Virus record (IMG/VR): IMGVR_UViG_2585427787_000004
Span: 1-11,928 of that record
Length of the DNA stretch: 11,928 bases
Reading direction: 5' to 3' (one strand)
From: a virus
Taxonomy: Duplodnaviria > Heunggongvirae > Uroviricota > Caudoviricetes
Shown here: piece after piece, positions 1-11,928 of the stretch
Layout of the letters: every line of letters starts with the position of its first letter
Position numbering within the stretch: the first letter of the stretch is position 1
Position numbers and translations under genes: made by a program
Notes under the pieces: model-generated
What the model was told of the DNA's origin: nothing
What the model saw: only the letters and a program-made list of their open reading frames with translations
Databases searched by the model: none

Positions 1-556
1 CCCCCTCGCCATCAATATCTTCCGGAAAACGGTCATAATCCGTCAGCGCCACGCATTTATAATCTGATGAGGACATGATATTGACTGACGGCCAGCCGAT
101 TTTCAGGTAGTTACCAGCAAGGAATGTTCTGTCATAAACGTTGTTGTCATTTTTGTTCGGACTCAGGCGACTGACCACTTCCGGGCTGACGCGAAACGTT
201 CTGGCGAGTCGTTTTTTGGAGTGTTCGCGGGCTTTTTCCTCCGTCATCTGAATGATCAGCATATCAGCAGGATCGCAAATCACGTTGTAAATCACCCAGC
301 CGTCAATCAGGCCGATAGTCTTGCCGGTTCGTGCCGGGCCAACAAATATCACTGCGTCGTATTCACGCGAGGCCAGGCAGTTCATCGGCTCAATAACATA
401 CGGTGCCACCAGCGGATCCCACGGGACTGAGTTCCCTGCCCCCATGGGCACCCGCATATACTGAGCAACGGCATCAGCAACCCGCATTCGTCTCGGTGCG
501 CGAAGGATATAACCTGAATCGGTTCGTGCTGCCTTTGCGGTTTCCTGATTCAGCAT
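1..556 (-). CDS. Phage terminase large subunit (lambda gpA-like), N-terminal part only; gene continues past the window start
   Basis: Minus-strand frame opens with ATG at 556..554 (MLNQETAKAARTD...) and stays open to position 1. Translation contains a Walker-A-like P-loop (VIFVGPARTGKTIGLIDGWV) and overall resemblance to the N-terminal ATPase region of lambda gpA. Start overlaps the stop of the upstream small-subunit gene (TAATG), the classic Nu1-A arrangement. Confidence 0.85.
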   Translation of the reverse strand, partial: MLNQETAKAARTDSGYILRAPRRMRVADAVAQYMRVPMGAGNSVPWDPLVAPYVIEPMNCLASREYDAVIFVGPARTGKTIGLIDGWVIYNVICDPADMLIIQMTEEKAREHSKKRLARTFRVSPEVVSRLSPNKNDNNVYDRTFLAGNYLKIGWPSVNIMSSSDYKCVALTDYDRFPEDIDGEG

Positions 557-1050
557 TACTCCTCCTGCTGTAATTCCTCCTCATCATCCGCACCTGCTTC
601 AGTCACCCGCAGGGCTATCTGATCGCGCAGATCATCAATAATGGACTGAACACGGCTCACAGCGGCAGGCTGCAGACCGCAGTCACGTTCCAGAATATCC
701 GGTAATGTCTCCAGCACCTGCACGACCGCTTTTGCCCAGATGGCAAACTCCCGTCTGACATCACTGGCCGAAATGAGTTGTGCCGTTTCCTGTTCGAACT
801 TAAGACGCTCACGTTCAGACTGATACCAGGCTTTGCGCTCATGCGCGTCCATTTCGCCTTCTGCAACCGGCGGTGGCAATGCCAGAAATGCCGACACAAT
901 ATCAACCACCCGATAAAGCTTGAGGTTGCTTTCATGCCCCCCTGCAACGGGTAGATTTTGCAGCCTTGCCGCAGCAGTCTGGCGATGTACACCTGACAGT
1001 GCCGCCAGTTGACTGATATTCAGCGTCAGATTTTTTAACTCTCGATCCAT
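556..1050 (-). CDS. Phage terminase small subunit (Nu1-like)
   Basis: 164-aa ORF from the six-frame track. N-terminal HTH-like segment (LNISQLAALSGVHRQTAAARLQNL) followed by an LYRVVDIVSAF segment parallels lambda Nu1 (KKQLADIFGASIRTIQNW...LYDSAAVIKWY); acidic C-terminus; sits immediately upstream of and overlapping the large subunit. Confidence 0.8.
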   Translation of the reverse strand: MDRELKNLTLNISQLAALSGVHRQTAAARLQNLPVAGGHESNLKLYRVVDIVSAFLALPPPVAEGEMDAHERKAWYQSERERLKFEQETAQLISASDVRREFAIWAKAVVQVLETLPDILERDCGLQPAAVSRVQSIIDDLRDQIALRVTEAGADDEEELQQEE

Positions 1051-1153
1051 ACCCGCTCCAGAATGTTTTAAACATGCATCTCGCGAACAACTTTAGGCAA
1101 ACGGTGTTAGTGATGAACAAAAAACAATCAAAATCGACACCATAAAAATAAAA

Positions 1154-1181
1154 CCACTGTAATATCAATCTATTACAGTGG
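1154..1181 (-). terminator. Perfect 11-bp inverted repeat (CCACTGTAATA-TCAATC-TATTACAGTGG) followed on the minus strand by a T-run; candidate rho-independent terminator or cos-region element
   Basis: Inverted repeat read directly from the sequence; plus-strand 1130-1153 is A-rich, so the minus-strand transcript has a U-tract right after the hairpin. Lies about 105-130 nt upstream of the Nu1-like start. Confidence 0.4.
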
Positions 1182-1632
1182 TGGTGATGACGAATAAAAT
1201 TTTAAAAACTAGCCTTTTTCCGCGACGCTCCCGCCCCGTGGCAGGCCACCCCACCGGAAGGACCCGCACAAATGAGAGCGTTTGTCATTAACATTTACAG
1301 ATAAGATGACGTACATCATTGAAACGCCATTCAGCCATATACCGGCAGCATTCGTAGTTGCACTCCGTAACTCTGCGACTAAGGTTAAAAACATGGCCCT
1401 CTTTTGCCACCGGCAAATCTTCAATGGATTTCCCCTGCCGGTTTTTTATTTTCGTCGATGCATAACATTGCATTTACATCAATAGCGGCTATTGTCATTA
1501 GTATGTTGCATCAATGCATGGGTGGTATTGGCGGTCTTCGCCGGCCGCTTCTGTGTAGCTGCTCCCTGTGACCGGTTTTTTATTTCTCACATTACAGCAA
1601 CCCCTTAGAGTGAAGGGCTGCTGTAATGCCTG

Positions 1633-2028
1633 TTACTCACGAATCAGGCGAGCACTCTTACTATTCATTTCAATACGCGAATACTGCGGTTTACCATCAA
1701 TGATGTCTGTCATTACGAACACCTCACCCGGCTGCAGTTCAACTGCACCTTCCGGTAATTTCATACCGGCAAATACCGGACAACCCGGATGACGATCATC
1801 TTCTGTTGCTTCCAGCATTGACTCACCAAACCACTCCGTCGTGGCGCGACCATCAGCTGCTTTGTAGTGGATCAAGTACTGGTTTTCGCCATCCGCATAC
1901 TGCGCGCGGGCTTTAACCTCACCCCATTCATCACTGATACGCATCTCCACCAGTTGAGACAACTCAAACTTAAACGGAGCAGCATCAGCACCAATTACAA
2001 TCGGTTTGTTTTCTGTTTTTTCCATCAT
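1633..2028 (-). CDS. Hypothetical acidic protein (131 aa), moron-position gene of unknown function
   Basis: ORF-track frame 1633..2076 trimmed to the tandem ATG ATG at 2028/2025, which is preceded by an AGGAGA Shine-Dalgarno (rev. comp. of 2031-2036). Protein is rich in D/E (MMEKTENKPIVIGADAAPFKFELSQLVEMRISDEWGEV...). No family recognised. Confidence 0.6.
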   Translation of the reverse strand: MMEKTENKPIVIGADAAPFKFELSQLVEMRISDEWGEVKARAQYADGENQYLIHYKAADGRATTEWFGESMLEATEDDRHPGCPVFAGMKLPEGAVELQPGEVFVMTDIIDGKPQYSRIEMNSKSARLIRE

Positions 2029-2199
2029 CGTCTCCTGATATCGAAGCCCGTCGCCGCACCGGGCACTGATCAACATTTGAGTATTCGCGGCGACAGAAAG
2101 AATTTATTTTATTGAGTAGCCACAAACACAGAATTTCATGCTTTCCGGACGCTGACGCACCCTTCATTTTTCAGCAAAATATTCTGCTCTTACAGGCGA

Positions 2200-2382
2200 T
2201 CAGTTCTGCAGACACTGCCGAACACCGTCGACAATTTCACAGACCTGAGACGCGGTATCGAAAAGCTGGCGCGCCTTATCCAGGCTGACGCACCCCACCA
2301 ATAAAAAAGGCACCAGTATCGCTACCAGTGCCCGTTTCACCGCCGTTCGCGGCATTCTGTGTGTCCAGTGTTTTCGCGCCAT
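2200..2382 (-). CDS. Small lipoprotein (signal peptide with lipobox LLVGC, roughly 30-aa Cys-containing mature part)
   Basis: Translation MARKHWTHRMPRTAVKRALVAILVPFLLVGCVSLDKARQLFDTASQVCEIVDGVRQCLQN. ATG at 2382 is preceded by GGTGGTGAT; an internal ATG at 2355 is an alternative start. Lipobox L-V-G-C after a hydrophobic stretch. Confidence 0.55.
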   Translation of the reverse strand: MARKHWTHRMPRTAVKRALVAILVPFLLVGCVSLDKARQLFDTASQVCEIVDGVRQCLQN

Positions 2383-2383
2383 A

Positions 2384-2497
2384 TCACCACCAACGCACAG
2401 CCCAAATCAGAACAGCGACCGCCACAAGGCGAATTGCAAAGGCCGCAGCCCTTGTCAAATCAAGGCTCGCGGGAGTTTCCATTTCAATACCTTTCAT
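2384..2497 (-). CDS. 37-aa peptide with C-terminal hydrophobic helix (MKGIEMETPASLDLTRAAAFAIRLVAVAVLIWAVRWW), below the ORF-track size cutoff
   Basis: Hand-translated from the minus strand. ATG at 2497 preceded by GAGGT Shine-Dalgarno at about 8 nt; stop TGA at 2386..2384, one base before the lipoprotein ATG, suggesting a coupled pair. Confidence 0.3.
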   Translation of the reverse strand: MKGIEMETPASLDLTRAAAFAIRLVAVAVLIWAVRWW

Positions 2498-2587
2498 AAT
2501 GGACAACCTCAAAAAGAATCTTTTATACTTTCCCACGAGGATTTTCTCCGTACTCACTAATCACAATTTCCCCTTTGACGTGAAAAC

Positions 2588-2627
2588 TAAAAACCCCGGA
2601 CTGTTCCCCCAGCCGGGGTTTTGTTTT
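2588..2627. terminator. Bidirectional rho-independent terminator hairpin (CCCCGG-A-CTG / CAG-CCGGGG) flanked by A-run and T-run
   Basis: Stem-loop read from sequence 2594-2618 with TTTTGTTTT on the plus side and AAACTAAAAA before it (U-tract for the minus strand). Located immediately 3' of the endolysin stop. Confidence 0.6.
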
Positions 2628-2629
2628 AC

Positions 2630-3007
2630 TTATCGCTTCAGCTGAAAGTGAGGTCCGTCTTTCAGCGTTTTCCAGTCCCCGCCCCATTCGATAGCGATCC
2701 CCAGCTCTGCGGCAGCCTGCTTAAATGCCTGTGCGATTTTCTCGTACAGAGGCCACTCCCATGACACCTGGCTGCCGATGTAGGCCACAACATCCACCGC
2801 ATCACCGGTCAGGTGGCGGCTGTTCATGGTCTGGCTTTTCCCTTCCGCAACCAGCTGTTTCTGGCGATACTTACTGCGCAGGCCTTCCGTAATACCGAAA
2901 TCAACCTCCGTCAGCTCCAGCGCACGGCGAACTACAGCAACCAGCTGTGGTTTGACACCCTCCAGATTTTTTTCACTGCGACGGCTGAATCTGAATTTAC
3001 CCGGCAT
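2630..3007 (-). CDS. Endolysin, peptidase M15 family (zinc D-Ala-D-Ala carboxypeptidase / L-alanyl-D-glutamate peptidase-like)
   Basis: Translation shows the M15 zinc-ligand pattern: SRHLTGDAVDV (H-x6-D) and C-terminal DGPHFQL histidine. The ORF track begins at a GTG (3013); I prefer the ATG at 3007, which has a GAGGTG Shine-Dalgarno about 5 nt upstream and sits 2 nt after the TGA of the preceding gene. Confidence 0.8.
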   Translation of the reverse strand: MPGKFRFSRRSEKNLEGVKPQLVAVVRRALELTEVDFGITEGLRSKYRQKQLVAEGKSQTMNSRHLTGDAVDVVAYIGSQVSWEWPLYEKIAQAFKQAAAELGIAIEWGGDWKTLKDGPHFQLKR

Positions 3008-3009
3008 AT

Positions 3010-3285
3010 TCACCTCAACAATGGAAAGATTTTTGTGACGTTCCCGCGTGCGTGTATCACCAGCACGCAGAACAGCAGGTTAAAAAACACTTCCAGCCAG
3101 CCCGTTGCTAACGGGCGACCACACAGATAGCTGAGGGGCGCAAAGGCATACAGCAGCATCAGCAGCCAGGCCAGCCATGACACCAGCGGTTTATGTCTGG
3201 AATCACGGCGACGATAAAAAAAGAGCGTCAGCACGATAACCGTGCATAACGCCACATTCAGCAATCCGGGAAGGTTACTTAACAT
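3010..3285 (-). CDS. Lysis-cassette membrane protein (91 aa, 2-3 predicted TM helices); possible second holin or antiholin
   Basis: Hydrophobic translation (LLNVALCTVIVLTLFFY...WLAWLLMLLYAFAPL...FFNLLFCVLVIH); ATG at 3285; tightly packed between the putative holin and the endolysin. Confidence 0.5.
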   Translation of the reverse strand: MLSNLPGLLNVALCTVIVLTLFFYRRRDSRHKPLVSWLAWLLMLLYAFAPLSYLCGRPLATGWLEVFFNLLFCVLVIHARGNVTKIFPLLR

Positions 3286-3667
3286 TGCCGCCTACTCCAC
3301 CCCGCAGGCGGGAGAACACACCGGACACCAGCGATGCAATATCCTGCTGGTGGATGAACGAGAGAATCTTCACCGACACCACCGAGACCAGCACCGCGCA
3401 AAGCGCATCTGCTGATGTACCGTCATACCCTGTTTTTGATGCAATCCAGGCTGACAGCACACGCGCTCCCAGCACGCCGACAATAAACGACACCAGAAAA
3501 TGCGCCACCACGCGCCAGACTGAAAGTGACTGCGGCATCGTTGCCACAAATAACGCCCCGGCGAACGCGCCAAACACAATCCCGAAATCCATCCCGGTAA
3601 ACAGCCCGAATACCGTCGCGCCACCCAGCGCCGCAGCCGTGCCGGAACCGGATAAGGGTTCAGACAT
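3275..3667 (-). CDS. Putative holin (130 aa, three hydrophobic segments)
   Basis: ORF-track frame 3275..3718 trimmed to the ATG at 3667, which is preceded by a strong AGGAGG Shine-Dalgarno (rev. comp. of 3671-3676). Three hydrophobic helices and a charged C-terminus; first gene of the lysis cluster upstream of the endolysin. Confidence 0.55.
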   Translation of the reverse strand: MSEPLSGSGTAAALGGATVFGLFTGMDFGIVFGAFAGALFVATMPQSLSVWRVVAHFLVSFIVGVLGARVLSAWIASKTGYDGTSADALCAVLVSVVSVKILSFIHQQDIASLVSGVFSRLRGGVGGNVK

Positions 3668-3755
3668 ACTTCCTCCTGAAAATAAAAAAAGGGCCACCAG
3701 CGACCCGTAAAAAAACACCCCGTCAAAGGCACCCGCAGATGCCTTTTGTGTGATG

Positions 3756-3908
3756 TTATTCAGATTTACGCAGTAAAGGCCGGAGCACGATCAGCGCCAT
3801 CGCCACCAGCACACCATCTGCCAGCACTGACATCAGTCGTCCGGTGAAATCCACCATCACTACCAGAAACAACAGGATGACAGCCAGCACAAGGCGCGCA
3901 CTTTTCAC
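3756..3908 (-). CDS. Possible 50-aa hydrophobic peptide (GTG start) just upstream of the holin; very tentative
   Basis: Hand-translated minus-strand frame: (GTG) KSARLVLAVILLFLVVMVDFTGRLMSVLADGVLVAMALIVLRPLLRKSE, GGAG about 8 nt upstream of the GTG. Below the ORF-track cutoff; no homology recognised. Confidence 0.2.
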   Translation of the reverse strand: MKSARLVLAVILLFLVVMVDFTGRLMSVLADGVLVAMALIVLRPLLRKSE

Positions 3909-4111
3909 AGGTACTGCTCCAGCGGCAACTGCAGCGCCTGCGCAATTTTCTTCAGTTGCGCTTCTTCTTCCTGACCGATACCGTCCTGGTCAGCGATATC
4001 CAGACACAGACACAGCACATTCACAGTATCATCAGTATCTGCAACATCAGTCAGCTGACGAAGGGCTTCAGCATTAGCAGAACGCGGTGGCGCTTCATAA
4101 CGGGCGCGGAT

Positions 4112-4137
4112 ATGAAAAAGGCCCGCCGAAGCGAGCC
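4112..4137 (-). terminator. Candidate rho-independent terminator after the tRNA cluster (GGCUCGC-UUCG-GCGGGCC followed by U-run on the minus strand)
   Basis: Hairpin read from plus 4120-4137 with A-run at 4115-4119 (U-tract on the minus transcript). Confidence 0.45.
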
Positions 4138-4151
4138 TGGAAAAATAAGCG

Positions 4152-4228
4152 TGGCGCGTTGTACTGGATTCGAACCAGTGACCGATTGCTTAGAAGGCAA
4201 TTGCTCTGTCCGGCTGAGCTAACAACGC
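4152..4228 (-). tRNA. tRNA-Arg (anticodon UCU), phage-encoded
   Basis: Reverse complement folds as a cloverleaf: acceptor GCGTTGT/ACAACGC, D-arm GCTC...GAGC, anticodon stem ATTGC/GCAAT with loop CTTCTAA (anticodon TCT), T-arm ACTGG-TTCGAAT-CCAGT, discriminator G, encoded CCA. Confidence 0.85.
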
Positions 4229-4241
4229 AGGGTACAGATAA

Positions 4242-4318
4242 TGGACCGCCATCGAGGACTCGAACCCCGCGCAACCAGCTTCGAAGGCTGGCGCTCTATC
4301 CTGATGAGCTAATGGCGG
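4242..4318 (-). tRNA. tRNA-Arg (anticodon UCG), phage-encoded
   Basis: Reverse complement: acceptor CCGCCAT/ATGGCGG (perfect 7 bp), D-arm GCTC...GAGC, anticodon stem CCAGC/GCTGG with loop CTTCGAA (anticodon TCG), T-loop TTCGAGT, encoded CCA. Confidence 0.8.
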
Positions 4319-4325
4319 TATGTGA

Positions 4326-4401
4326 TGGTGGCCCTTGCTGGATTTGAACCAGCGACCTGGCGATTATGAGTCGCTCGCTCTCACCACTGAGCTAAAGGGC
4401 C
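4326..4401 (-). tRNA. tRNA-Ile2-like (anticodon CAU; sequence resembles the E. coli lysidine-modified AUA-reading tRNA rather than tRNA-Met)
   Basis: Reverse complement GGCCCTTTAGCTCAGTGGTGAGAGCGAGCGACTCATAATCGCCAGGTCGCTGGTTCAAATCCAGCAAGGGCCACCA closely resembles, as I recall it, the chromosomal tRNA-Ile2 (ileX/ileY); anticodon loop CTCATAA. Confidence 0.8.
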
Positions 4402-4450
4402 GGGAGCAGAATAATAATGGTGCGTAATTAATTCTGCAATCTCATCCGTT

Positions 4451-5500
4451 TCAAACGATTAAATCCTGAACTTCCCTGACTGTCTGTTCAAAACGTCCGG
4501 TCTCCAGCTCAACACCAATCGCACAACGCCCCAGTGCCATCGCCGCTTTTACCGTTGAACCTGAACCCATAAAAAAATCTGCAACCAGGTCTCCCGGACG
4601 ACTGCTCGCGTTGATTATCTGCTGCAGCATTTCTGCCGGTTTTTCGCACGGATGTTTCCCTGGATAGTACTGCACCGGTTTATGCGTCCAGACATCGGTG
4701 TACGGAACCTGCGCCGTCACACCGAAATACCGCCGCAAATTTTTATATTCACTCAGCAGTTCCGTATACTGCCGGTTCAGCTCACTGTATGTGCTGACCA
4801 GCTGGTGGTGTGGCTTTTCCAGTTCCCCGCGCTGATGTTTTTCTGCCGCAACACGCGCAAACAACGCCTGCAATTTATTGTAATCACCCTCGTTCGGTAA
4901 CTGCCACTGACTGGCACCAAACCAGTGCGAAGCCATGTTTTTCTTTCCGGTGGCTTCCGCTATCTGTTTTGACGTTATTCCCAGTGATTTACGCGCATCA
5001 CGAAAGTAAGAAATCAGCGGGGCCATGACGTGCTGTTTTAGCTCGCGCCCCTGCTCCACATAGCCATCATCTTTCGGGCGATACGGTCCCTGATAATGTT
5101 CTGCAAACAGAATGCGCTCTGTTGCCGGAAAATACGCCCGCAGACTTTCCTTATTGCACCCGTTCCAGCGTCCGGACGGCTTCGCCCAGATAATGTGGTT
5201 CAGCACATTAAAGCGCTCACGCATCATGATTTCGGTGTCAGATGCCAGGCGATGACCACAGAACAGGTAAAGACTTCCGGCAGGCTTCAGTACCCGCCAG
5301 AACTGCGCCAGACACTGGTCCAGCCATTTCAGGTAATCATCGTCGCCCTCCCACTGGTTATCCCAGCCCTCGGGCTTCACTTTAAAGTATGGCGGGTCTG
5401 TGACTATCAGATCGACAGAGTTTTCCGGTAAGGTCTGGATAAACTCCAGGCAATCAGCGTTGATTAACTCACAACTGGATATTTTTACAGTATTAATCAT
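4451..5500 (-). CDS. DNA methyltransferase, beta-class amino-methyltransferase (probably N6-adenine); no adjacent restriction endonuclease seen
   Basis: 349-aa ORF. N-terminal catalytic motif IV DPPY (LIVTDPPYF) and C-terminal AdoMet motif I FxGxG (DFFMGSGSTVKAAMALGRCAIGVE); the IV-then-I order defines the beta class. Confidence 0.85.
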   Translation of the reverse strand: MINTVKISSCELINADCLEFIQTLPENSVDLIVTDPPYFKVKPEGWDNQWEGDDDYLKWLDQCLAQFWRVLKPAGSLYLFCGHRLASDTEIMMRERFNVLNHIIWAKPSGRWNGCNKESLRAYFPATERILFAEHYQGPYRPKDDGYVEQGRELKQHVMAPLISYFRDARKSLGITSKQIAEATGKKNMASHWFGASQWQLPNEGDYNKLQALFARVAAEKHQRGELEKPHHQLVSTYSELNRQYTELLSEYKNLRRYFGVTAQVPYTDVWTHKPVQYYPGKHPCEKPAEMLQQIINASSRPGDLVADFFMGSGSTVKAAMALGRCAIGVELETGRFEQTVREVQDLIV

Positions 5501-5650
5501 AGATCAATAAGCACTTCTCTGATAGGCTCATACCGCTTTTGCGCAAAGCAGATGGGCCTGAGGTTTGCTTGTGACCCCAACGCATGAGCAGATGGCTGGC
5601 AGGTGCCGCTAACACCCACCAGCCGCCCATTACCACAAATTAAAAAGCCT

Positions 5651-5848
5651 TCACTGCGGAAGGCGTCTGTAACAACCGAACTGATAATCTGCCAGACCCG
5701 CCATAACAAGCTGAGTCAGTATTAACTGGCAGCGTTCGCGTGAAAGGTAAGTATTCTGCGCAATTTCCCCGACGGTCGCCGGTTCGGTGATGCTTAATTC
5801 ATTAAACACCACTCTGGCGGTTTCGGTCATATCCTGCTGTTTTAGCAT
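5651..5848 (-). CDS. Small protein (65 aa) with helix-turn-helix-like segment; hypothetical
   Basis: ORF-track frame 5651..5971 begins at a GTG lying inside the terminator hairpin; trimmed to the first ATG at 5848 (alternative ATG at 5830). Translation MLKQQDMTETARVVFNELSITEPATVGEIAQNTYLSRERCQLILTQLVMAGLADYQFGCYRRLPQ. Confidence 0.4.
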   Translation of the reverse strand: MLKQQDMTETARVVFNELSITEPATVGEIAQNTYLSRERCQLILTQLVMAGLADYQFGCYRRLPQ

Positions 5849-5971
5849 GCCTTTTTCCCTTTTCCGGTTAACGTGACATACCAATACCTCTTGTCGAAAA
5901 AGCCAGCAAGCTGAAAGACCGGCATTCGCAACCACCAGCGCATTTAACGTCCTGTACCGCTTTTCGGGCAC

Positions 5972-5995
5972 AAAAAAACCCGCATAAAGCGGGTT
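5972..5995 (-). terminator. Rho-independent terminator immediately downstream of the Q-type gene (candidate tR')
   Basis: Stem AACCCGC-ATAAA-GCGGGTT (5977-5995) with A7 run on the plus strand at 5972-5978, i.e. a U-tract after the hairpin on the minus transcript. Confidence 0.6.
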
Positions 5996-6054
5996 CTTTC
6001 AGGTGTCCATGTCTGCTATTCGCCTCGCGGTATAGCTTTGCGAAGCGTAGCTGG

Positions 6055-6083
6055 ATTGAAACAGTTTATGCGTAAAAAATCAA
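6055..6083 (-). promoter_or_regulatory. Candidate late promoter (pR'-like): -35 TTGATT, 17-nt spacer containing TG, -10 TTCAAT on the minus strand
   Basis: Hexamers read from the reverse complement of 6055-6083; the position between the Q-type gene stop and the terminator matches the lambdoid pR'/qut-tR' arrangement. Hexamer match is weak, so this is positional inference. Confidence 0.3.
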
Positions 6084-6634
6084 GACATTTTTTGAGCAAA
6101 CGATTCTCGCATAGGGATGTATAGCGCATATTCAGCAACAGCTAACCAATTAGCAATTCGCTTTTCGCATGTACTAAAACACCATTCCGGGTGCACCTCA
6201 TTCAACAATTCAGCCATTTTGCGTTTACTCATCCCCCGCCCTTCGTACCTTTGCCGCAGGATATCAATCAATCCAGGATAACGTGCAAGCGCTTTACTTA
6301 TCACCCCATCAATGCGTAACGCCTCTGCATCAGTACAGTGAGACAACCAGCTCTTCTGTCTGCCAGCGATCATCTCTCGCAAGAATGCTTCCAGCTCTGG
6401 TTTATCAATCCCTGACTCCCTGATTCTACGCAGGGCTTCATTGATTGCGGTTTTTGTCAGTTTTTTGGATGCCAGCAACTGATTGAACATATTTCCTGGT
6501 TTGCCACCACCTATATACGACCAACGCCCCCACATCCGTAATTTCCCCTGGATCCAGACGGCTTCCAGCGTTTTTAGACGTAAATGCTCGCCGCTTTTGC
6601 CTGTAATTTCCGGGTATATCATATTTACGATCAC
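6080..6634 (-). CDS. Putative late-gene antiterminator Q (Q-family protein)
   Basis: 184-aa ORF (GTG at 6634; first ATG at 6622). Contains an LRMWGRWSYIGGG segment resembling the WGAW segment I recall from phage 21/933W-type Q proteins, and sits in the canonical Q position: after rusA, before a promoter-terminator pair and the lysis genes. Confidence 0.6.
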   Translation of the reverse strand: MIVNMIYPEITGKSGEHLRLKTLEAVWIQGKLRMWGRWSYIGGGKPGNMFNQLLASKKLTKTAINEALRRIRESGIDKPELEAFLREMIAGRQKSWLSHCTDAEALRIDGVISKALARYPGLIDILRQRYEGRGMSKRKMAELLNEVHPEWCFSTCEKRIANWLAVAEYALYIPMRESFAQKMS

Positions 6635-6996
6635 TCACTCTCAATTTTGTAAATCTTCACGCCCAGCCGCCCCCCAGGAACGCGCTGACCGCGCACAATA
6701 TTGATTTCATCAAACTGCTCGTCGTCTATGAGAAGTCCGGCATGCGTCAGCGCATCCAGTGGTGCTTTCAGGATATTGTCCAGGTCACGACGACGTTTAT
6801 CCGGTGGCTCTGCAATAATCTTTATCGCCAGCCTTCCGGACAGGTTTAATTTCAGCCGCTGCTGGCGAACAATAAGCGCCACATCACGGCGATAACGCTC
6901 ACCGGCTTTTGATACAAAATATGTGCTGCCACGACGTCGCCAGTAAGTGTTCACCGTTGGCGGGTAAGGCAAAACAAATTCTATGCGTTCAGTCAT
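6631..6996 (-). CDS. rusA: Holliday junction resolvase RusA
   Basis: 121-aa translation with the RusA catalytic signature (PPDKRRRDLDNILKAPLDAL) and N-terminal LPYPPTVNTYW motif; size and motifs match E. coli RusA. Start ATG abuts the upstream stop (TGAATG). Confidence 0.9.
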   Translation of the reverse strand: MTERIEFVLPYPPTVNTYWRRRGSTYFVSKAGERYRRDVALIVRQQRLKLNLSGRLAIKIIAEPPDKRRRDLDNILKAPLDALTHAGLLIDDEQFDEINIVRGQRVPGGRLGVKIYKIESE

Positions 6997-8052
6997 TCAT
7001 GCTTTCCACTTCAGGACACCCGAATTTCTCGCGTGCATTAAAAAACGAATCAGCAACAACAGCTGGCTGCCGTGTTTTTCTTCAAAATCTTTTACCCCGG
7101 CGTGTAGTTCGCTATGGCATTTACGGCACAGCGGAATAACAAACAAATCATCAGCCTTTGTTCCCATCCCTCCCAGTCCATGACCAATGATGTGATGCGG
7201 ATCATCTGCCTGATTACCACACGTCATGCATTTCTGCGTTTTTACCCAACGCGTGTATACAGGCATCTCTTCCCGTCGTGGTTTCTGGCGCTGGAGATAC
7301 TGAGCCGGTGACTCCGGATCAACGGCAATGCTTACCACCGTCTTTTCCTGTGGCGGGTTTTGCTGGTGGGCGTGAGGCAGTAGCGCAATATTTTTTGTGC
7401 GCTGCTTCAGCATGCTGGTGGCGGTCTGCTCTCCCGGCACGATGTCGCTCTCGCGGTATACTGAGCGAATTTTTTCCGCGCGTAATCCCAGTGAACGACG
7501 TAACACCGTCTCCGGTAGTGCGTCCGCTACGTTATTTATGGTTGCCCACCAGGATAATTCAGCCAGCGATAATTCCCGCTCCTGCGTGCCATTCATTGCG
7601 TGGCGGATGACATCAATCATCCATGCTGACAGGTTTTGGTGAGCAAGCTGCCCGAGTGATTCGGAAGTCTGGTTACGCAGCTGGTTGTCGCAGTGCCAGC
7701 ACAACACCATCGCGCCGGTACCGTAACGATGTATGACGGTTTCACTGTGATGGTAGTCACCATGAGGCCACTGGCAGGATTTAACGTGGCGTAACAGCCA
7801 GTCAGACAATGCACCAGCACCACCAGCAGCACGAATCACCCGCTCATCGCTGAAAAATGGCAGTAATGATTTATCCTCCGCCAGCGGCTGGCGAACAGCA
7901 GGAACGACTCCGGACGGCAGACCGCGCATGCTTTTCGGTTCCGGCTCCACCAGAACTCGAGGGTTATGAAATACCTGCATGGATTCACGGCCCGGTTTTA
8001 GCACCACCAGCCCAAGTTCCGGTACCGGAACAGGTCGAAGTAATACCCGCAC
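6997..8052 (-). CDS. Phage DUF968-like protein (YdfU-like) with C-terminal Cys/His HNH-type zinc-finger motif
   Basis: C-terminal CMTCGNQADDPHHIIGHGLGG...CRKCHSELH motif. The ORF track starts at ATG 8124, which would overlap the upstream gene by about 70 nt; I prefer the in-frame GTG at 8052, preceded by GGAGG with 4-nt spacing and lying 1 nt after the upstream TAA. Confidence 0.65.
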   Translation of the reverse strand: MRVLLRPVPVPELGLVVLKPGRESMQVFHNPRVLVEPEPKSMRGLPSGVVPAVRQPLAEDKSLLPFFSDERVIRAAGGAGALSDWLLRHVKSCQWPHGDYHHSETVIHRYGTGAMVLCWHCDNQLRNQTSESLGQLAHQNLSAWMIDVIRHAMNGTQERELSLAELSWWATINNVADALPETVLRRSLGLRAEKIRSVYRESDIVPGEQTATSMLKQRTKNIALLPHAHQQNPPQEKTVVSIAVDPESPAQYLQRQKPRREEMPVYTRWVKTQKCMTCGNQADDPHHIIGHGLGGMGTKADDLFVIPLCRKCHSELHAGVKDFEEKHGSQLLLLIRFLMHARNSGVLKWKA

Positions 8053-8053
8053 G

Positions 8054-8326
8054 TTACCTCCAGATGCGTTGCTGGAATGTGCGGGACGGACGCGGTGGGC
8101 GTTCGGAATAAGGGAGCCTGACATAGATTATCCAGTGACGATAATCGAGGCTGAGGGCTTTCTTAATCTCGTATCCGCGTCTGCGGTAGTTATGAATTAG
8201 CCATTCGGCCTGTTCTTCAGTACATGGTGGGTGTTGGTACCAGTCGGTTTTAAATGCGTGTGAACGCCGCCCATGCCGGATGGCAAGGGCGGTATCAGAA
8301 TTGTGAAATTTGGTTTTGTGCGCCAT
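8054..8326 (-). CDS. Small basic hypothetical protein (90 aa); occupies the slot between the hok gene and the DUF968 gene
   Basis: ORF-track frame 8054..8485 reads through the terminator hairpin at 8408-8425 (the segment NPLRRVLFFP is the hairpin translated); trimmed to the first ATG downstream of the terminator at 8326. Translation MAHKTKFHNSDTALAIRHGRRSHAFKTDWYQHPPCTEEQAEWLIHNYRRRGYEIKK... Confidence 0.45.
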   Translation of the reverse strand: MAHKTKFHNSDTALAIRHGRRSHAFKTDWYQHPPCTEEQAEWLIHNYRRRGYEIKKALSLDYRHWIIYVRLPYSERPPRPSRTFQQRIWR

Positions 8327-8398
8327 CGGTTGTCTCTGCTGGCGCAGCAGGTGCCAGTTGTTCAGGCTGGCGTGCGAATTGTAAACCAGAATGCCAGG

Positions 8399-8425
8399 AA
8401 AAAACAAAACCCGCCGAAGCGGGTT
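8399..8425 (-). terminator. Rho-independent terminator downstream of hok
   Basis: Stem AACCCGC-CGAA-GCGGGTT (8408-8425), same stem sequence as the terminator at 5977-5995, preceded on the plus strand by AAAAAACAAAA (U-tract on the minus transcript). Confidence 0.6.
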
Positions 8426-8493
8426 AAGTGCGGGTGCGTTGAGGATGCCTGACTCATCAGAGGTGGCGAGGGATTTCTCCCTCACCTGGTCTC

Positions 8494-8649
8494 TTACTCC
8501 TCAGGTTCGTAAGCTGTGAAGACAGCGACCTCCGTCTGGCCGGTTCGGATTCGTACCTCGCAGAGGTCTTTCCTCGTTACCAGTGCCGTCACTATGACGG
8601 TTAAACAGATGACGATCAGGGCGATTAACATCGCCTTTTGCTGCTTCAT
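8494..8649 (-). CDS. hokD: Hok/Gef-family type I toxin (51 aa)
   Basis: Translation MKQQKAMLIALIVICLTVIVTALVTRKDLCEVRIRTGQTEVAVFTAYEPEE matches, as far as I can recall, E. coli HokD (RelF); typical Hok TM helix plus the conserved Cys/Tyr periplasmic tail. ATG at 8649 preceded by AAGGAG. An in-frame upstream ATG at 8706 gives a 70-aa extension (possible mok-like reading frame). Confidence 0.85.
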   Translation of the reverse strand: MKQQKAMLIALIVICLTVIVTALVTRKDLCEVRIRTGQTEVAVFTAYEPEE

Positions 8650-9050
8650 AGCCTGCTTCTCCTTGCCTTTCGGCACGTAAGAGGCTAACCTAGATTTGCC
8701 GTTCATAGATTGAGCCTCAGATTAATGTTAAACGTCTTGCAGGACGCGTAACGTTAACTGGGGCTTTTCTCTATCTGCCTTTTGGTGGCATGCCTGAGAC
8801 AGATAACCTCAAGCACCCGCAGTAATTTTACATAAAGGTTATGGTTCCTTTCAATAACTCAACAATTTCCCATCTAAATACTACTCATATAGTCATATAG
8901 GCTGGCGATAATTTAAAGATAAGACTCTCTCTTTTTCTCCACCACATAATGCATTACCAACGCAAAAGTTACCATGGTAATTATATCTTAACGAAAAATA
9001 CCCCGCGAACATATTCTACTCAACAAAAAATTTTGCGTACGCATTATTCT

Positions 9051-9079
9051 TTGTAGTATCTTAAGTATGTAATTATTTT
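9051..9079 (+). promoter_or_regulatory. Candidate sigma-70 promoter for the two-gene cassette (-35 TTGTAG, 17-nt spacer, -10 TATTTT)
   Basis: Hexamers read from sequence about 20-45 nt upstream of the ORF A ATG in an AT-rich leader; match is modest. Confidence 0.3.
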
Positions 9080-9097
9080 TTACAGGAAATTTTTGCA

Positions 9098-10012
9098 ATG
9101 GCTAGCAAGCGCTTTTTCTTCGATTTTTATCAATGTCACACTATAAGCACTGATACAAATGCAGGAGTTAATTCACCTGAAGCTGTTTTTTCAAAAATTT
9201 TTGAGTCATACAGCGAAGGCCGAGACAAAACTGTACGTAAAATAGGAAATAAACTAGTTGAAATGCGCTTCATGGAAAGAACCGACTATGGTTTCAGGGG
9301 AGTTATAGGAAAACACAGAACCAATAATCTCCCTCATGTTGCTGTAGCCGGAGGTGAAGAAAGAGAAATTAAACTTGAAATCAATGAAAACTTATTAGAA
9401 AAAGCTTATTTTCATTTTTATACCCAAGACTCAGTTTTAATAATTCAACGAAACAGACTCTGTTATGGCTGGTTGCTATTAAGTAAATATCTTTCCAACA
9501 GTTCACAAAATACAACTGTTAATCCCATCATTCAGACCAGTAGTTTAAAGTGGTTGATGCGTAATGAAGTTCGAATCAAAACTCTAGAAATCGGTATCGC
9601 TCGGCCAAAGAATGTGCAACTATATGAGGATGTTGAACATAACTTCAACAATGCATTGATAGCCACTCTAAATGGTACTAATTCTGCCAAAGTAAATCTT
9701 ACATTACGTGGGGATAGTCGTTCTGAAGATCCTGAATCTCGCTATCTAGGTTCTCAACTAAAAAGAGCCTTTAAAGAAACACTAGAGACTTTTGAGGTTG
9801 AAAAACTTAAACTAGAAACCCAAGACATTGAGACCGGTGTACAGCATCCTATCGATCTTGTAGCAGACAAATTAGTCTACTACACAGATGTTGAACTTGG
9901 AGGTAGGTATCCATTAGTTGGCAGCATTTGGAGCGCCTTAACTCTTGCAAAAGATAGTAAAGATGATGAATTGAAGGCATACTTTGGAGTAGCCAATCAA
10001 AGAGTTGATTAA
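9098..10012 (+). CDS. Hypothetical soluble protein, 304 aa (ORF A of the AT-rich cassette); no family recognised
   Basis: Long ORF with AT-rich codon usage, ATG at 9098 with a weak purine-rich stretch upstream. No Walker, HxH or other catalytic motif that I can assign with confidence. Followed 15 nt later by ORF B. Confidence 0.7.
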   Translation: MASKRFFFDFYQCHTISTDTNAGVNSPEAVFSKIFESYSEGRDKTVRKIGNKLVEMRFMERTDYGFRGVIGKHRTNNLPHVAVAGGEEREIKLEINENLLEKAYFHFYTQDSVLIIQRNRLCYGWLLLSKYLSNSSQNTTVNPIIQTSSLKWLMRNEVRIKTLEIGIARPKNVQLYEDVEHNFNNALIATLNGTNSAKVNLTLRGDSRSEDPESRYLGSQLKRAFKETLETFEVEKLKLETQDIETGVQHPIDLVADKLVYYTDVELGGRYPLVGSIWSALTLAKDSKDDELKAYFGVANQRVD

Positions 10013-10027
10013 TTTTGGAGCGATGGT

Positions 10028-10507
10028 ATGAAAAAGGGGAAATTGATAACTTTGTACAGTTATGGTTATAATTTAGCCTCTGTTGTTTTTTGTATCATCG
10101 CATGGCCTCTTTCTGCAAAGCTAAATTTTGCACAAATTCAGCCAATCGCTTCGGCCGTTTCTACATTTTCTGGGATATTATTTGGCTTTGTTTTAGGTTC
10201 GCTTACCTTGATTGCTTCAGCTAGAGATAATACGCTAATTAGAAATATAGGAAAAACTGGTTATTTGAAAAAACTGACCGAAGAAATGCACTCCACTATG
10301 GGATGGTTACTATCAGTTTGTATTATTTTTATCATTTTATTATTTTTCCCTGATACACTAAAGTTTAAATTCCCACTAGTAAAAGATGCCGACGAGCACA
10401 CATATGCCCAACTATTACTCCAAGTGGGAATTTTTTTCCTGCTTATTACATTTAAAAAATTTTATACTACCTGGTCGCGTCTAAAAGACATAACAAGGCT
10501 CATGTGA
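10028..10507 (+). CDS. Hypothetical small polytopic membrane protein, 159 aa, about four TM helices (ORF B of the cassette)
   Basis: ATG at 10028 preceded by GGAG at about 8 nt. Four hydrophobic segments (LASVVFCIIAWPL; IASAVSTFSGILFGFVLGSLTLIA; MGWLLSVCIIFIILLFF; YAQLLLQVGIFFLLITF) separated by short charged loops. Confidence 0.7.
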   Translation: MKKGKLITLYSYGYNLASVVFCIIAWPLSAKLNFAQIQPIASAVSTFSGILFGFVLGSLTLIASARDNTLIRNIGKTGYLKKLTEEMHSTMGWLLSVCIIFIILLFFPDTLKFKFPLVKDADEHTYAQLLLQVGIFFLLITFKKFYTTWSRLKDITRLM

Positions 10508-10512
10508 TATAT

Positions 10513-11037
10513 CTATAATTGCACATAAAAAGACAATCCTAACAATACTCCCATTGTAAGTTGTATATTCTTTCTTATTGTTCCATCTGAACATTTGTAC
10601 CTTCGTGCTATTGTACGCAAAGATATACCTATAACAAAATGAGCGATAATTAACTCATAGTCATCTATTCTATATTGTTTAAGCTTCAACATGCAGGTAT
10701 CAATCATACGACCTTCATCGTTGCCACACTGACGGCGTAATTTCTTACCATGAGGTACTACATCTTTATATTTATCAGCCACTTGCTGCCAGTTGATAGA
10801 ACTATTTCCAGCTGCAGCCCAAGCCCCCCAACTGTCCAAAATATCATATATATTAGCATTGCTATCCACCTTTTTTTTATATTCTTTTTTGAGGCAACCA
10901 AGAAGCATCCTGGCCATCGTTATTATTTCTATACTTGTAACTGATTCATAAGCATCAGGAGAAATAATCCTCCCATCACTTAATGCCCTTTCACTAAGAT
11001 TTGCTATTTCCAATAATCGTTCTTTAGTTATTTCCAT
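10513..11037 (-). CDS. Q-family antitermination protein paralog (phage 21/933W-Q-like), 174 aa from the ATG
   Basis: Track ORF starts at GTG 11049; the ATG at 11037 has a GGAGA Shine-Dalgarno. The C-terminal 100 aa parallel the 933W/21-type Q as I recall it: LDSWGAWAAAGN vs LERWGAWAANN, CGNDEGRMIDTCMLKLK vs CCDDDAMIICGCMARLK, YKCSDGTIRKNIQ vs HCCSDGYIGKRLQ. AT-rich codon usage. Confidence 0.65.
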   Translation of the reverse strand: MEITKERLLEIANLSERALSDGRIISPDAYESVTSIEIITMARMLLGCLKKEYKKKVDSNANIYDILDSWGAWAAAGNSSINWQQVADKYKDVVPHGKKLRRQCGNDEGRMIDTCMLKLKQYRIDDYELIIAHFVIGISLRTIARRYKCSDGTIRKNIQLTMGVLLGLSFYVQL

Positions 11038-11162
11038 TATTATCTCCACCGCCCTTTCGGGCGGCCTCCTGATGTTCTGAGGGTGCAGAAATCCCTCCGG
11101 TTAAGGATTAAATTTTATTTACAGTGCTGGATTTAATTATTCAGATTTGGATTATGCTTTCT

Positions 11163-11928
11163 GTAAGCGACTCGTCAGAACCGTATTGATATTTACTGAG
11201 AGCTCAGATCAACTTTCCAGGGCAACAGATCGCGTACCCGGTTTGCCGGCCAGTCCTGGATATGTTCAATGACGTAACGCAGCCACTTTTCTGGCTCCAC
11301 ATTGTTCAGACGGCATGTGCCGATCAGCGAGTACAACACCGCCGCATGTTCACCACCGCTGTCGGAACCCGCGAACATCCAGTTTTTCCGGCCTACGGCC
11401 ACTCCCCGTAAGGCGTTCTCTGCGATGTTGTTGTCGATTTCCACCCAGCCATTACTGCAGTACACGTTCAGTGCATCCCACTGTTTCAGCAGGTATGCGA
11501 ACGCTTTTGCCGTATCTGAGTGACGCGACAGTGTTTTCATCTGTTGCTGTATCCAGTCATACAGTGACTGCATCAGTGGCGCGGCTCTGGCTTTTCTTGC
11601 CGCCAGACGCTGTTCTGCTGAACAGCACCGGACCTCTGCCTCGATGGCATACAGTTCACCGATACGCTGCAGGGCTTCCGTGGTGATGTAGGTGGGCGCT
11701 CTTGCATGCACATCGTGGATTTTTCTCCGGGCATGAGCCATACACGCGGCTTCCGTTATTCTGCCGGATTCGTATAACGCCCGGTAACCACCGTAAGCAT
11801 CGGCCTGAAGCACACCGCTGTAACCGGCCAGGTGATTTTGTGGATGGATACCTTTCCGGTCCGGACTGTACGCGAACCAGACCGCCGGGGGCATCTGTGA
11901 ACCGGCGTTACGGTCATCACGGACGTAG
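11163..11928 (-). mobile_element. IS66-family insertion sequence, right-end portion (terminal repeat beginning GTAAGCG at 11163); element continues past the window end
   Basis: IS66-family terminal inverted repeats start with GTAAGCG; this motif sits about 30 bp beyond the stop of the IS66-type transposase ORF, the expected geometry for the tnpC-proximal end. Confidence 0.65.
11193..11928 (-). CDS. IS66-family transposase (TnpC/orf3), C-terminal part; N-terminus lies outside the window
   Basis: Translation has the characteristic IS66 TnpC segments ([56 protein letters not shown]). The frame stays open from the track start (11894) to the window edge. Confidence 0.8.

Follow-up and report, generated by a model that had tools for sequence, protein, structure and literature searches.

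How a phage breaches the outer membrane of its host when its lysis genes include no recognizable spanins is the question raised by an 11,928-nt stretch of DNA (IMG/VR record IMGVR_UViG_2585427787_000004, positions 1-11,928; hereafter the window), in which all lysis genes lie on the minus strand. An earlier note on this DNA had described a lysis cassette in the order holin (130 aa), 91-aa membrane protein, M15 endolysin and strong terminator, lacking an Rz/Rz1-type spanin pair, and had pointed to a lipoprotein gene beyond the terminator, preceded by a gene for a 37-aa transmembrane peptide. The gene order was borne out by the coordinates, the family matches and folding, both small genes were found at the positions given in Table 1, and the lack of an Rz/Rz1-type pair was upheld by lipobox, type-II and tblastn scans. 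According to the spanin theory, outer-membrane disruption requires a periplasm-spanning complex that fuses both membranes. Our analysis suggests, with a probability that we put at roughly 0.55, that the lipoprotein is the outer-membrane-disruption component of this cassette and would act without a dedicated inner-membrane subunit. What argues for this is the lack of a canonical spanin, the position of the lipoprotein gene, its mosaic association with different lysis genes, its exclusivity with Rz/Rz1, purifying selection, the Q-type gene upstream, and the listing of a homolog in the spanin survey of Kongari et al. 2018.

The cassette is of a known type: it belongs to a lambdoid prophage of E. 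coli and has the phiP27-type set of late lysis genes. With the Stx2e phage phiP27 and with phiSTEC1575-Stx2k the region shares 91-92% identity, and E. coli strain 120899, in which the PGAP annotation gives "hypothetical protein" for both small genes, showed 100% identity over the 451 bp tested; the cassette is common, with matches in 341 of 5,426 complete E. coli genomes. Relatives of the lipoprotein were gathered with lipoprotein profile searches, and the comparison covered ~130 related loci overall, with flanks of 2.5-6 kb for the loci and whole-genome coverage for phiP27 and phiSTEC1575-Stx2k. An endolysin-anchored set consisted of 80 IMG/VR loci together with these two phages (82 in total).

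When all six frames of the window were scanned with all start codons, no other plausible open reading frame (ORF) with a lipobox was found; the one other match was a 28-aa plus-strand ORF (8594-8680), located inside a Hok-family gene and opposite to the lysis genes. No type-II ORF, with an N-terminal transmembrane domain followed by a periplasmic domain, was found on either strand of the window, and lambda-type Rz/Rz1 queries gave no tblastn match to it better than E = 0.7. The complete genomes of phiP27 and phiSTEC1575-Stx2k contained no Rz/Rz1 homolog (tblastn E > 0.1) and no other small lipoprotein in the late operon. In three loci used as positive controls the type-II scan picked up Rz; in 26 loci with the lipoprotein gene it gave no credible candidate within 2.6 kb of that gene. 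Compared with two-component spanins, the lipoprotein is not accompanied by an adjacent, overlapping or embedding type-II inner-membrane protein with a periplasmic coiled-coil, its mature part of 30 aa falls short of the combined length of such pairs, and no homology to a known spanin family (Phage_lysis PF03245, lambda Rz/Rz1) was found. The earlier note had itself named an alternative frame and the 91-aa protein as places where a spanin might have been overlooked: no canonical spanin was found in an alternative frame, and the topology of the 91-aa protein is that of a three-transmembrane holin. This protein is not an i-spanin, because its three hydrophobic segments (residues 1-25, 32-56 and 58-83) leave no periplasmic domain.

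The lipoprotein gene was present in 80 of the 82 endolysin-anchored loci, and in ~45 of the 82 the distance from the endolysin stop codon to its start is 18 nt, with neither a terminator nor the peptide gene in between. Most relatives have either a spacing of 15-18 nt between the endolysin stop and the lipoprotein gene or a 4-nt overlap of the two, the overlap being found in the subtype with a GH108 endolysin. The family is small and comprises three subtypes, and the gene follows an endolysin gene in every locus, although the genes preceding it vary: holin_8, holin_3_7 and M15; holin_8, holin_3_7 and GH108 muramidase; a lambda-S-type holin (PF05106) and M15; or a lambda-S-type holin (PF05106) and GH108. 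A P22-AR/Ant-like moron in Salmonella was counted as a fifth context. Overall, the lipoprotein was found after three types of holin and two types of endolysin. The slot between endolysin and lipoprotein can also receive other insertions, namely a 93-aa gene, an antisense 90-aa gene, an Ant-like gene, and LT-IIa/b toxin genes, and the cassette adjoins Stx2e, Stx2k and LT-II toxin genes. In five loci (L120-L124, ~787-1925) the heat-labile enterotoxin LT-IIa/b genes lie between the GH108 endolysin and the genes for the transmembrane peptide and the lipoprotein, an insertion that parallels phiP27, where the Stx genes are located just upstream of the holins.

Six loci with the same holin pair have no lipoprotein gene and carry in the same slot a lambda-type Rz gene with an embedded Rz1, either after the Ant-like gene (L076 and L077) or, in Yersinia, after the peptide gene (L125-128). 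Phage GER2 has the order S-R-(terminator and peptide)-Rz/Rz1 and, further downstream, a copy of the lipoprotein gene with four in-frame stops. Among the ~130 related loci, no locus was found with both an intact lipoprotein gene and Rz/Rz1. The pattern across these genomes is suggestive of mutual exclusivity between the lipoprotein and Rz/Rz1; it is not statistical proof, because it goes back to about three replacement events among related loci.

The case had been recognized in part: a homolog of the window lipoprotein had already been listed as an o-spanin, since the survey of Kongari et al. 2018 describes phiP27 as having a "separated" two-component spanin in which the i-spanin and the o-spanin are both singleton families (PMC6139136). 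The combined periplasmic length of this pair is 62 residues, which is the minimum of the survey and the lower end of its published range of 62-300 aa (PMC6139136). The listed o-spanin (20706-20861; 51 aa, with a mature part of 30 aa) is the homolog of the window lipoprotein, and the listed i-spanin is a 64-aa product (20348-20542; PMC6139136 supplement). The i-spanin ORF (4323-4517 in our phiP27 locus, L001) starts with TTG and is antisense to a conserved 90-aa helical ORF that shows 46% identity in other prophages, while the i-spanin ORF itself is not conserved in the homologous loci L065 and L067 and lies within an insertion absent from the window. For these reasons the i-spanin published for phiP27 is probably an artefact of annotation, whereas the lipoprotein half of the pair would stand. 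No experimental work on the phiP27 lysis genes was found in the literature.

The lipoprotein gene is real and, judged from its polymorphism, is under purifying selection, with a pN/pS of 0.25 overall and 0.21 for the mature part (37 distinct alleles). The +2 residue is Val and not Asp, in keeping with the outer-membrane lipoprotein signals of o-spanins, and by the established +2 rule the Lol pathway would be expected to deliver the protein to the outer membrane. The mature peptide (CVSLDKARQLFDTASQVCEIVDGVRQCLQN) has 30 aa and no proline, and Cys48 and Cys57, as well as the lipobox Cys, are invariant across the three subtypes, so that periplasmic cysteines suited to disulfide linkage are present, as they are in spanins. 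Residues 13-37 form the only hydrophobic segment and the C-terminus is polar. The mature part is moderately amphipathic, the best 18-mer having a hydrophobic moment of 0.5-0.6. No Pfam family was matched at E <= 1 (Lysis_col included), and none in NCBIfam or PADLOC; the sole match to a PHROG spanin (E = 0.048) was over the signal peptide, and the lipoprotein's own PHROG family is one of unknown function. A hidden Markov model (HMM) search of 1.8 billion representative proteins returned just 22 relatives, all belonging to the same small family and none linked to a characterized protein. An hhalign comparison with Braun lipoprotein Lpp gave a probability of 51%, mostly from the signal peptide, and the hydrophobic positions of the mature part (7, 10, 14, 17, 21, 24 and 28 from the lipidated Cys) match by eye what we take to be the a/d register of the Lpp heptads; co-assembly of the lipoprotein with Lpp is a weak lead. 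As a side observation on annotation, PGAP gives the lipoprotein gene in a 51-aa or a 60-aa form where it is annotated, and in some complete E. coli genomes with the DNA match (L136 and L137) the gene is left unannotated.

The 37-aa peptide gene is also real, as indicated by a pN/pS of 0.25, a conserved ribosome-binding site (GAGG, 9 nt upstream of the start codon), and the listing of the exact 37-aa sequence in 4369 blocks of a public assembly collection. A 57-aa form starting at GTG was considered and rejected, since the conserved and widely called form is the 37-aa one with ATG and the GAGG site. By hydropathy, the single hydrophobic segment of the peptide is C-terminal, and its stop codon lies 1 nt before the ATG of the lipoprotein gene (TGAnATG junction). 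Nothing was found for it in Pfam, NCBIfam or PADLOC, and its PHROGs family is of unknown function. Alignment showed that the terminator and the peptide gene form one insertion extending from the endolysin stop codon to the ribosome-binding site of the lipoprotein gene, with the terminator as its left end; this insertion was present in 60 of the scanned loci, and relatives without it also lack the terminator. More than half of the related cassettes with an intact lipoprotein gene have no peptide gene; in phage GER2 and the Yersinia prophages the peptide gene lies directly upstream of an intact Rz/Rz1 and is joined to it by the same TGAnATG junction. In GER2 a different hairpin with a T-run, in ~70% identical, unaligned DNA, lies upstream of the peptide gene, between R and Rz. 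Because the peptide is absent from most lipoprotein cassettes and precedes Rz/Rz1 elsewhere, it is neither the obligate partner of the lipoprotein nor a substitute for Rz. It may be an accessory lysis modulator or a moron-like element. The earlier note had offered the peptide and the lipoprotein together as a possible non-canonical pair; the lipoprotein is indeed the best candidate for the outer-membrane step, but the peptide proved to be a facultative insertion.

The terminator directly after the endolysin stop codon is strong (-24.9 kcal/mol, z = -4.15 against shuffled sequences), and the earlier note places the lipoprotein gene beyond it. Reading it as the end of the lysis unit was rejected in view of the comparison, as the lipoprotein gene of most relatives abuts or overlaps the endolysin gene, and also of the organization of the window itself: the terminator is not a functional boundary because a Q-type gene lies upstream, the tRNA genes (4152-4401) come after that gene, and terminator-like hairpins also precede the holin gene (4138-4119 and 3706-3691, in addition to 2614-2596). 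The Q-type candidate matched PF06576 DUF1133 (E = 6e-103) and, with 28.3 bits against a cutoff of 26 bits, PF06530 Phage_antitermQ. In lambdoid late operons, Q-modified polymerase reads through such terminators. A promoter scan of the minus strand detected no sigma-70-like promoter between the terminator and the peptide and lipoprotein genes. We infer that the lysis block of the window would be read through and co-transcribed late. A further terminator-like hairpin, with an 11-bp stem and a T-run, was seen within the signal-peptide coding region of the lipoprotein gene (window 2308-2333, minus strand), in a stretch of DNA that does not vary among the aligned loci; this hairpin may be functional, or it may merely result from the conserved ALVAILVPFLL codons.

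In the mechanism that we propose, Q-modified RNA polymerase would transcribe the entire block through the terminators, one or both of the holin-family proteins would permeabilize the inner membrane, and the soluble L-Ala-D-Glu endopeptidase would destroy the murein. After lipidation at Cys31 and sorting to the outer membrane, in whose inner leaflet it would reside, the lipoprotein would expose a 29-residue, Cys-containing amphipathic helix and, with no inner-membrane subunit dedicated to it, would breach the outer membrane. It might do so by two routes: the helix could destabilize the outer membrane directly, in the manner of bacteriocin release proteins and entericidin, or, once the wall is lost, it could insert into the apposed inner membrane and thus work as a minimal spanin in one piece. 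A separate facultative module, dispensable for the outer-membrane step, would be formed by the terminator and the 37-aa peptide. The identities of the genes, the absence of Rz/Rz1, the behavior of the lipoprotein in position and evolution, and the fact that the peptide is facultative are observations; outer-membrane localization and every biochemical step of the disruption are put forward here as a model.

Several points weigh against a role of the lipoprotein in outer-membrane disruption. The argument for its function is one of guilt by association throughout, and we know of no precedent for an o-spanin without a partner. Although the lipoprotein occupies the spanin slot, it fails the defining structural test of a spanin, because 30 mature residues (~4.5 nm as a helix) cannot span the intact periplasm. 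The AF2 model is a single helix of low confidence (pLDDT 66) and too poor for fold searches, the hydrophobic moment of the whole peptide exceeded that of shuffled sequences at p = 0.05-0.44, depending on the subtype, and the mature part is not cationic (net charge -1 to +3). The exclusivity with Rz/Rz1 involves about three independent replacement events in phylogenetically related loci. Furthermore, the lipoprotein gene of the window comes after a strong terminator, a placement often seen with morons, and a distant partner beyond the 2.5-6 kb flanks could exist in any of the loci other than the two complete phage genomes.

One alternative is that the peptide and the lipoprotein are lysogenic-conversion or superinfection-exclusion morons similar to Bor, Cor or Llp, that they have no role in lysis, and that these phages simply lack an outer-membrane-disruption protein. 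In favor of this, the lipoprotein is small and would sit in the outer membrane, its gene in the window comes after a strong terminator, neither gene has a family annotation, and the slot between endolysin and terminase is a hot-spot for morons, as illustrated by the LT-II toxin, Ant-like, 93-aa and antisense 90-aa genes. In addition, ~13% of the phages surveyed had no spanin (PMC6139136). However, the scan described above revealed no sigma-70-like promoter between the terminator and the two genes; no PADLOC match was obtained; and in most relatives the lipoprotein gene abuts the endolysin gene or is translationally coupled to it. Furthermore, the lipoprotein follows unrelated combinations of holin and endolysin, and precisely those loci that carry Rz/Rz1 lack it or have a decayed copy. 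We therefore regard the moron explanation as unlikely, while giving it real weight.

The remaining alternatives retain a spanin and differ in where its inner-membrane half is sought. If the lipoprotein were a true o-spanin with an unconventional partner, the inner-membrane subunit could be a holin-family or a host protein, which would account for the presence of two holin-family genes where one would suffice and for the conserved periplasmic cysteines, which are typical of spanin subunits (PMC6139136). This is rather improbable, as the holin loops are just a few residues long and the lipoprotein also follows single lambda-S-type holins that are unrelated to holin_8 and holin_3_7; therefore, no phage-encoded partner is conserved. 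Another candidate partner, raised in the earlier note, is the 37-aa peptide, as a type-I (N-out, C-in) inner-membrane subunit of a non-canonical two-component spanin, given the tight TGAnATG coupling of the two genes and the purifying selection acting on both. We consider such a pair very unlikely, because the extracytoplasmic part of the peptide would amount to <=16 residues, more than half of the cassettes with an intact lipoprotein do without it, and in GER2 and Yersinia it precedes a complete Rz/Rz1 by the same junction with no lipoprotein partner. A canonical spanin might also have been missed because it lies in a different frame, on the opposite strand or at some other place in the prophage, and o-spanins are often left unannotated (196 cases; PMC6139136). 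Yet the six-frame, all-start scans of the window and of the two complete related phages revealed none, the Rz/Rz1 tblastn matches all had E > 0.1, and the same method recovered Rz in the control loci, so that an overlooked spanin is hardly to be expected. The lipoprotein acting alone is the reading that we prefer.

Table 1. Coordinates of the lysis genes and associated elements in the window.
Feature	Position	Strand	Family match or sequence
Lipoprotein precursor, 60 aa, lipobox LVGC, Cys31	2382..2200	-	phrog_7528, E = 1.5e-35
Small membrane peptide, 37 aa, C-terminal transmembrane domain (RAAAFAIRLVAVAVLIWAVRWW)	2497..2384	-	phrog_4493, E = 9e-24
Intrinsic terminator hairpin, flanked by an A-run and a T-run	~2622..2589	-	AAAACCCCGG...CCGGGGTTTTT
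Soluble M15 L-alanyl-D-glutamate endopeptidase endolysin, 125 aa (127 aa from GTG 3013)	3007..2630	-	Peptidase_M15_4
Second holin-family protein, 91 aa, 3 transmembrane segments	3285..3010	-	Phage_holin_3_7
Holin-family protein, 130 aa, ~3-4 transmembrane segments (hydropathy)	3667..3275	-	Phage_holin_8
Q-type late antiterminator candidate, upstream of tRNAs and lysis genes	6080..6634	-	

The other genes of the cassette have clear family assignments. The 130-aa holin matched PF16931 (E = 3.4e-23; 82.5 bits against the Pfam gathering cutoff of 26.4) and the holin family phrog_198 (E = 8e-42), its ATG is preceded by AGGAGG, and an identical copy of the gene is annotated as 'putative holin' by PGAP. 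The start of the 91-aa gene overlaps the end of the 130-aa holin gene by 11 nt, and its product matched PF05449 (E = 4.7e-21; 75.0 bits against a cutoff of 25.4) and phrog_217, also a holin family (E = 6.8e-38). The endolysin matched PF13539 (E = 7.8e-13; 49.2 bits against a cutoff of 25) and phrog_465 (E = 1.3e-75), and among PDB entries the Serratia L-Ala-D-Glu endopeptidase ChiX (5opz, E = 6.6e-44) and T5 Lys (2mxz, E = 7.8e-24); hydropathy revealed no hydrophobic window in it and no signal or signal-arrest-release segment. Just upstream of the holin gene, the window encodes a 50-aa DUF3927 small membrane protein (3756-3908, minus strand; phrog_1470, TciB-like), which is in turn preceded by a truncated TerB-like ORF that corresponds to an intact 141-aa gene in related loci.

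Elsewhere in the window, an ORF for a type I toxin of the Hok/Gef family was found inside the prophage (8494-8706, minus strand; PF01848, E = 3e-23). A low-GC island (~8750-11050; GC 0.34-0.38) carries two plus-strand genes, one for a 304-aa DUF6731 protein (9098-10012) and one for a 159-aa protein with multiple transmembrane segments and a weak match to RexB (10028-10507; PADLOC E = 0.0015), which are possibly a RexAB-like abortive-infection pair; flanking the island is another gene for a Q-type antiterminator (10513-11049, minus strand; PF06530, E = 3e-30). Two stretches at the ends of the window were also noted (11193-11894, minus strand, and 1-555): a fragment of an IS66-family transposase was present at one end, and in the strain with 100% identity PGAP marks the gene for the terminase large subunit, adjoining the DUF1441 small subunit, as a truncated pseudogene. 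From the IS66 fragment and the terminase pseudogene, the prophage may be defective.

The cassette type and the listing of the lipoprotein as an o-spanin were already known; what our analysis indicates in addition is that the lipoprotein stands alone, that its published partner is spurious and that the peptide insertion is unrelated to it. If this is true, the replacement of Rz/Rz1 by a partnerless lipoprotein of 30 residues would challenge the spanning requirement and would define a minimal module for breaching the outer membrane. The release of the Stx2e, Stx2k and LT-II toxins depends on lysis. The analysis also flags a probable error in a published spanin database, namely the phiP27 i-spanin.

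Among known systems, the lipoprotein resembles lambda Rz1 and other o-spanins in being a small lipoprotein, expected in the outer membrane, whose gene closes the lysis cassette at its 3' end, in its conserved periplasmic cysteines, and in occupying the slot that holds Rz/Rz1 in sister cassettes. The differences are that it has no i-spanin and no sequence similarity to Rz1, and that a mature part free of proline and predicted to be helical stands against the 10 Pro of the unstructured Rz1. The unimolecular spanin T1 gp11 is likewise a single polypeptide with an N-terminal outer-membrane lipoprotein signal, encoded by the last gene of its cassette, but it has a C-terminal transmembrane domain and a long beta-rich periplasmic domain, whereas the window lipoprotein, with only 30 mature residues and no second hydrophobic segment, does not combine the signal of a lipoprotein with a transmembrane domain at the C-terminus in one chain. 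The Serratia ChiWXYZ system (Type 10 secretion) shares a holin and an L-Ala-D-Glu endopeptidase with the cassette, whose endolysin is a close ChiX homolog; that system carries Rz/Rz1-like genes. The cassette of the window, in contrast, sits in a prophage late operon, between Q and the tRNAs on one side and the terminase on the other. The colicin lysis proteins or bacteriocin release proteins and entericidin B are very small lipoproteins (mature ~27-35 aa) that cause permeabilization or lysis. The window lipoprotein has no sequence similarity to the colicin lysis proteins, which are Gly/Ser-rich and without Cys, it did not match the Lysis_col/entericidin family HMM, and it is encoded in a phage late operon and not in a colicin or chromosomal operon. 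Disruptin, gp28 of phage phiKT, is a cationic antimicrobial peptide (bioRxiv 10.1101/515445), whereas the lipoprotein has a lipobox signal and a near-neutral charge and thus lacks a strongly cationic amphipathic character; what would be shared is a single small non-spanin disruptor of the outer membrane in a phage without spanins. We tentatively suggest, as a possibility that falls somewhat short of an even chance, that this lipoprotein family, with its three subtypes found in Enterobacterales prophages only, might represent a third class of outer-membrane disruption after the spanins and disruptin, in which a partnerless lipopeptide of ~30 residues is interchangeable with Rz/Rz1.

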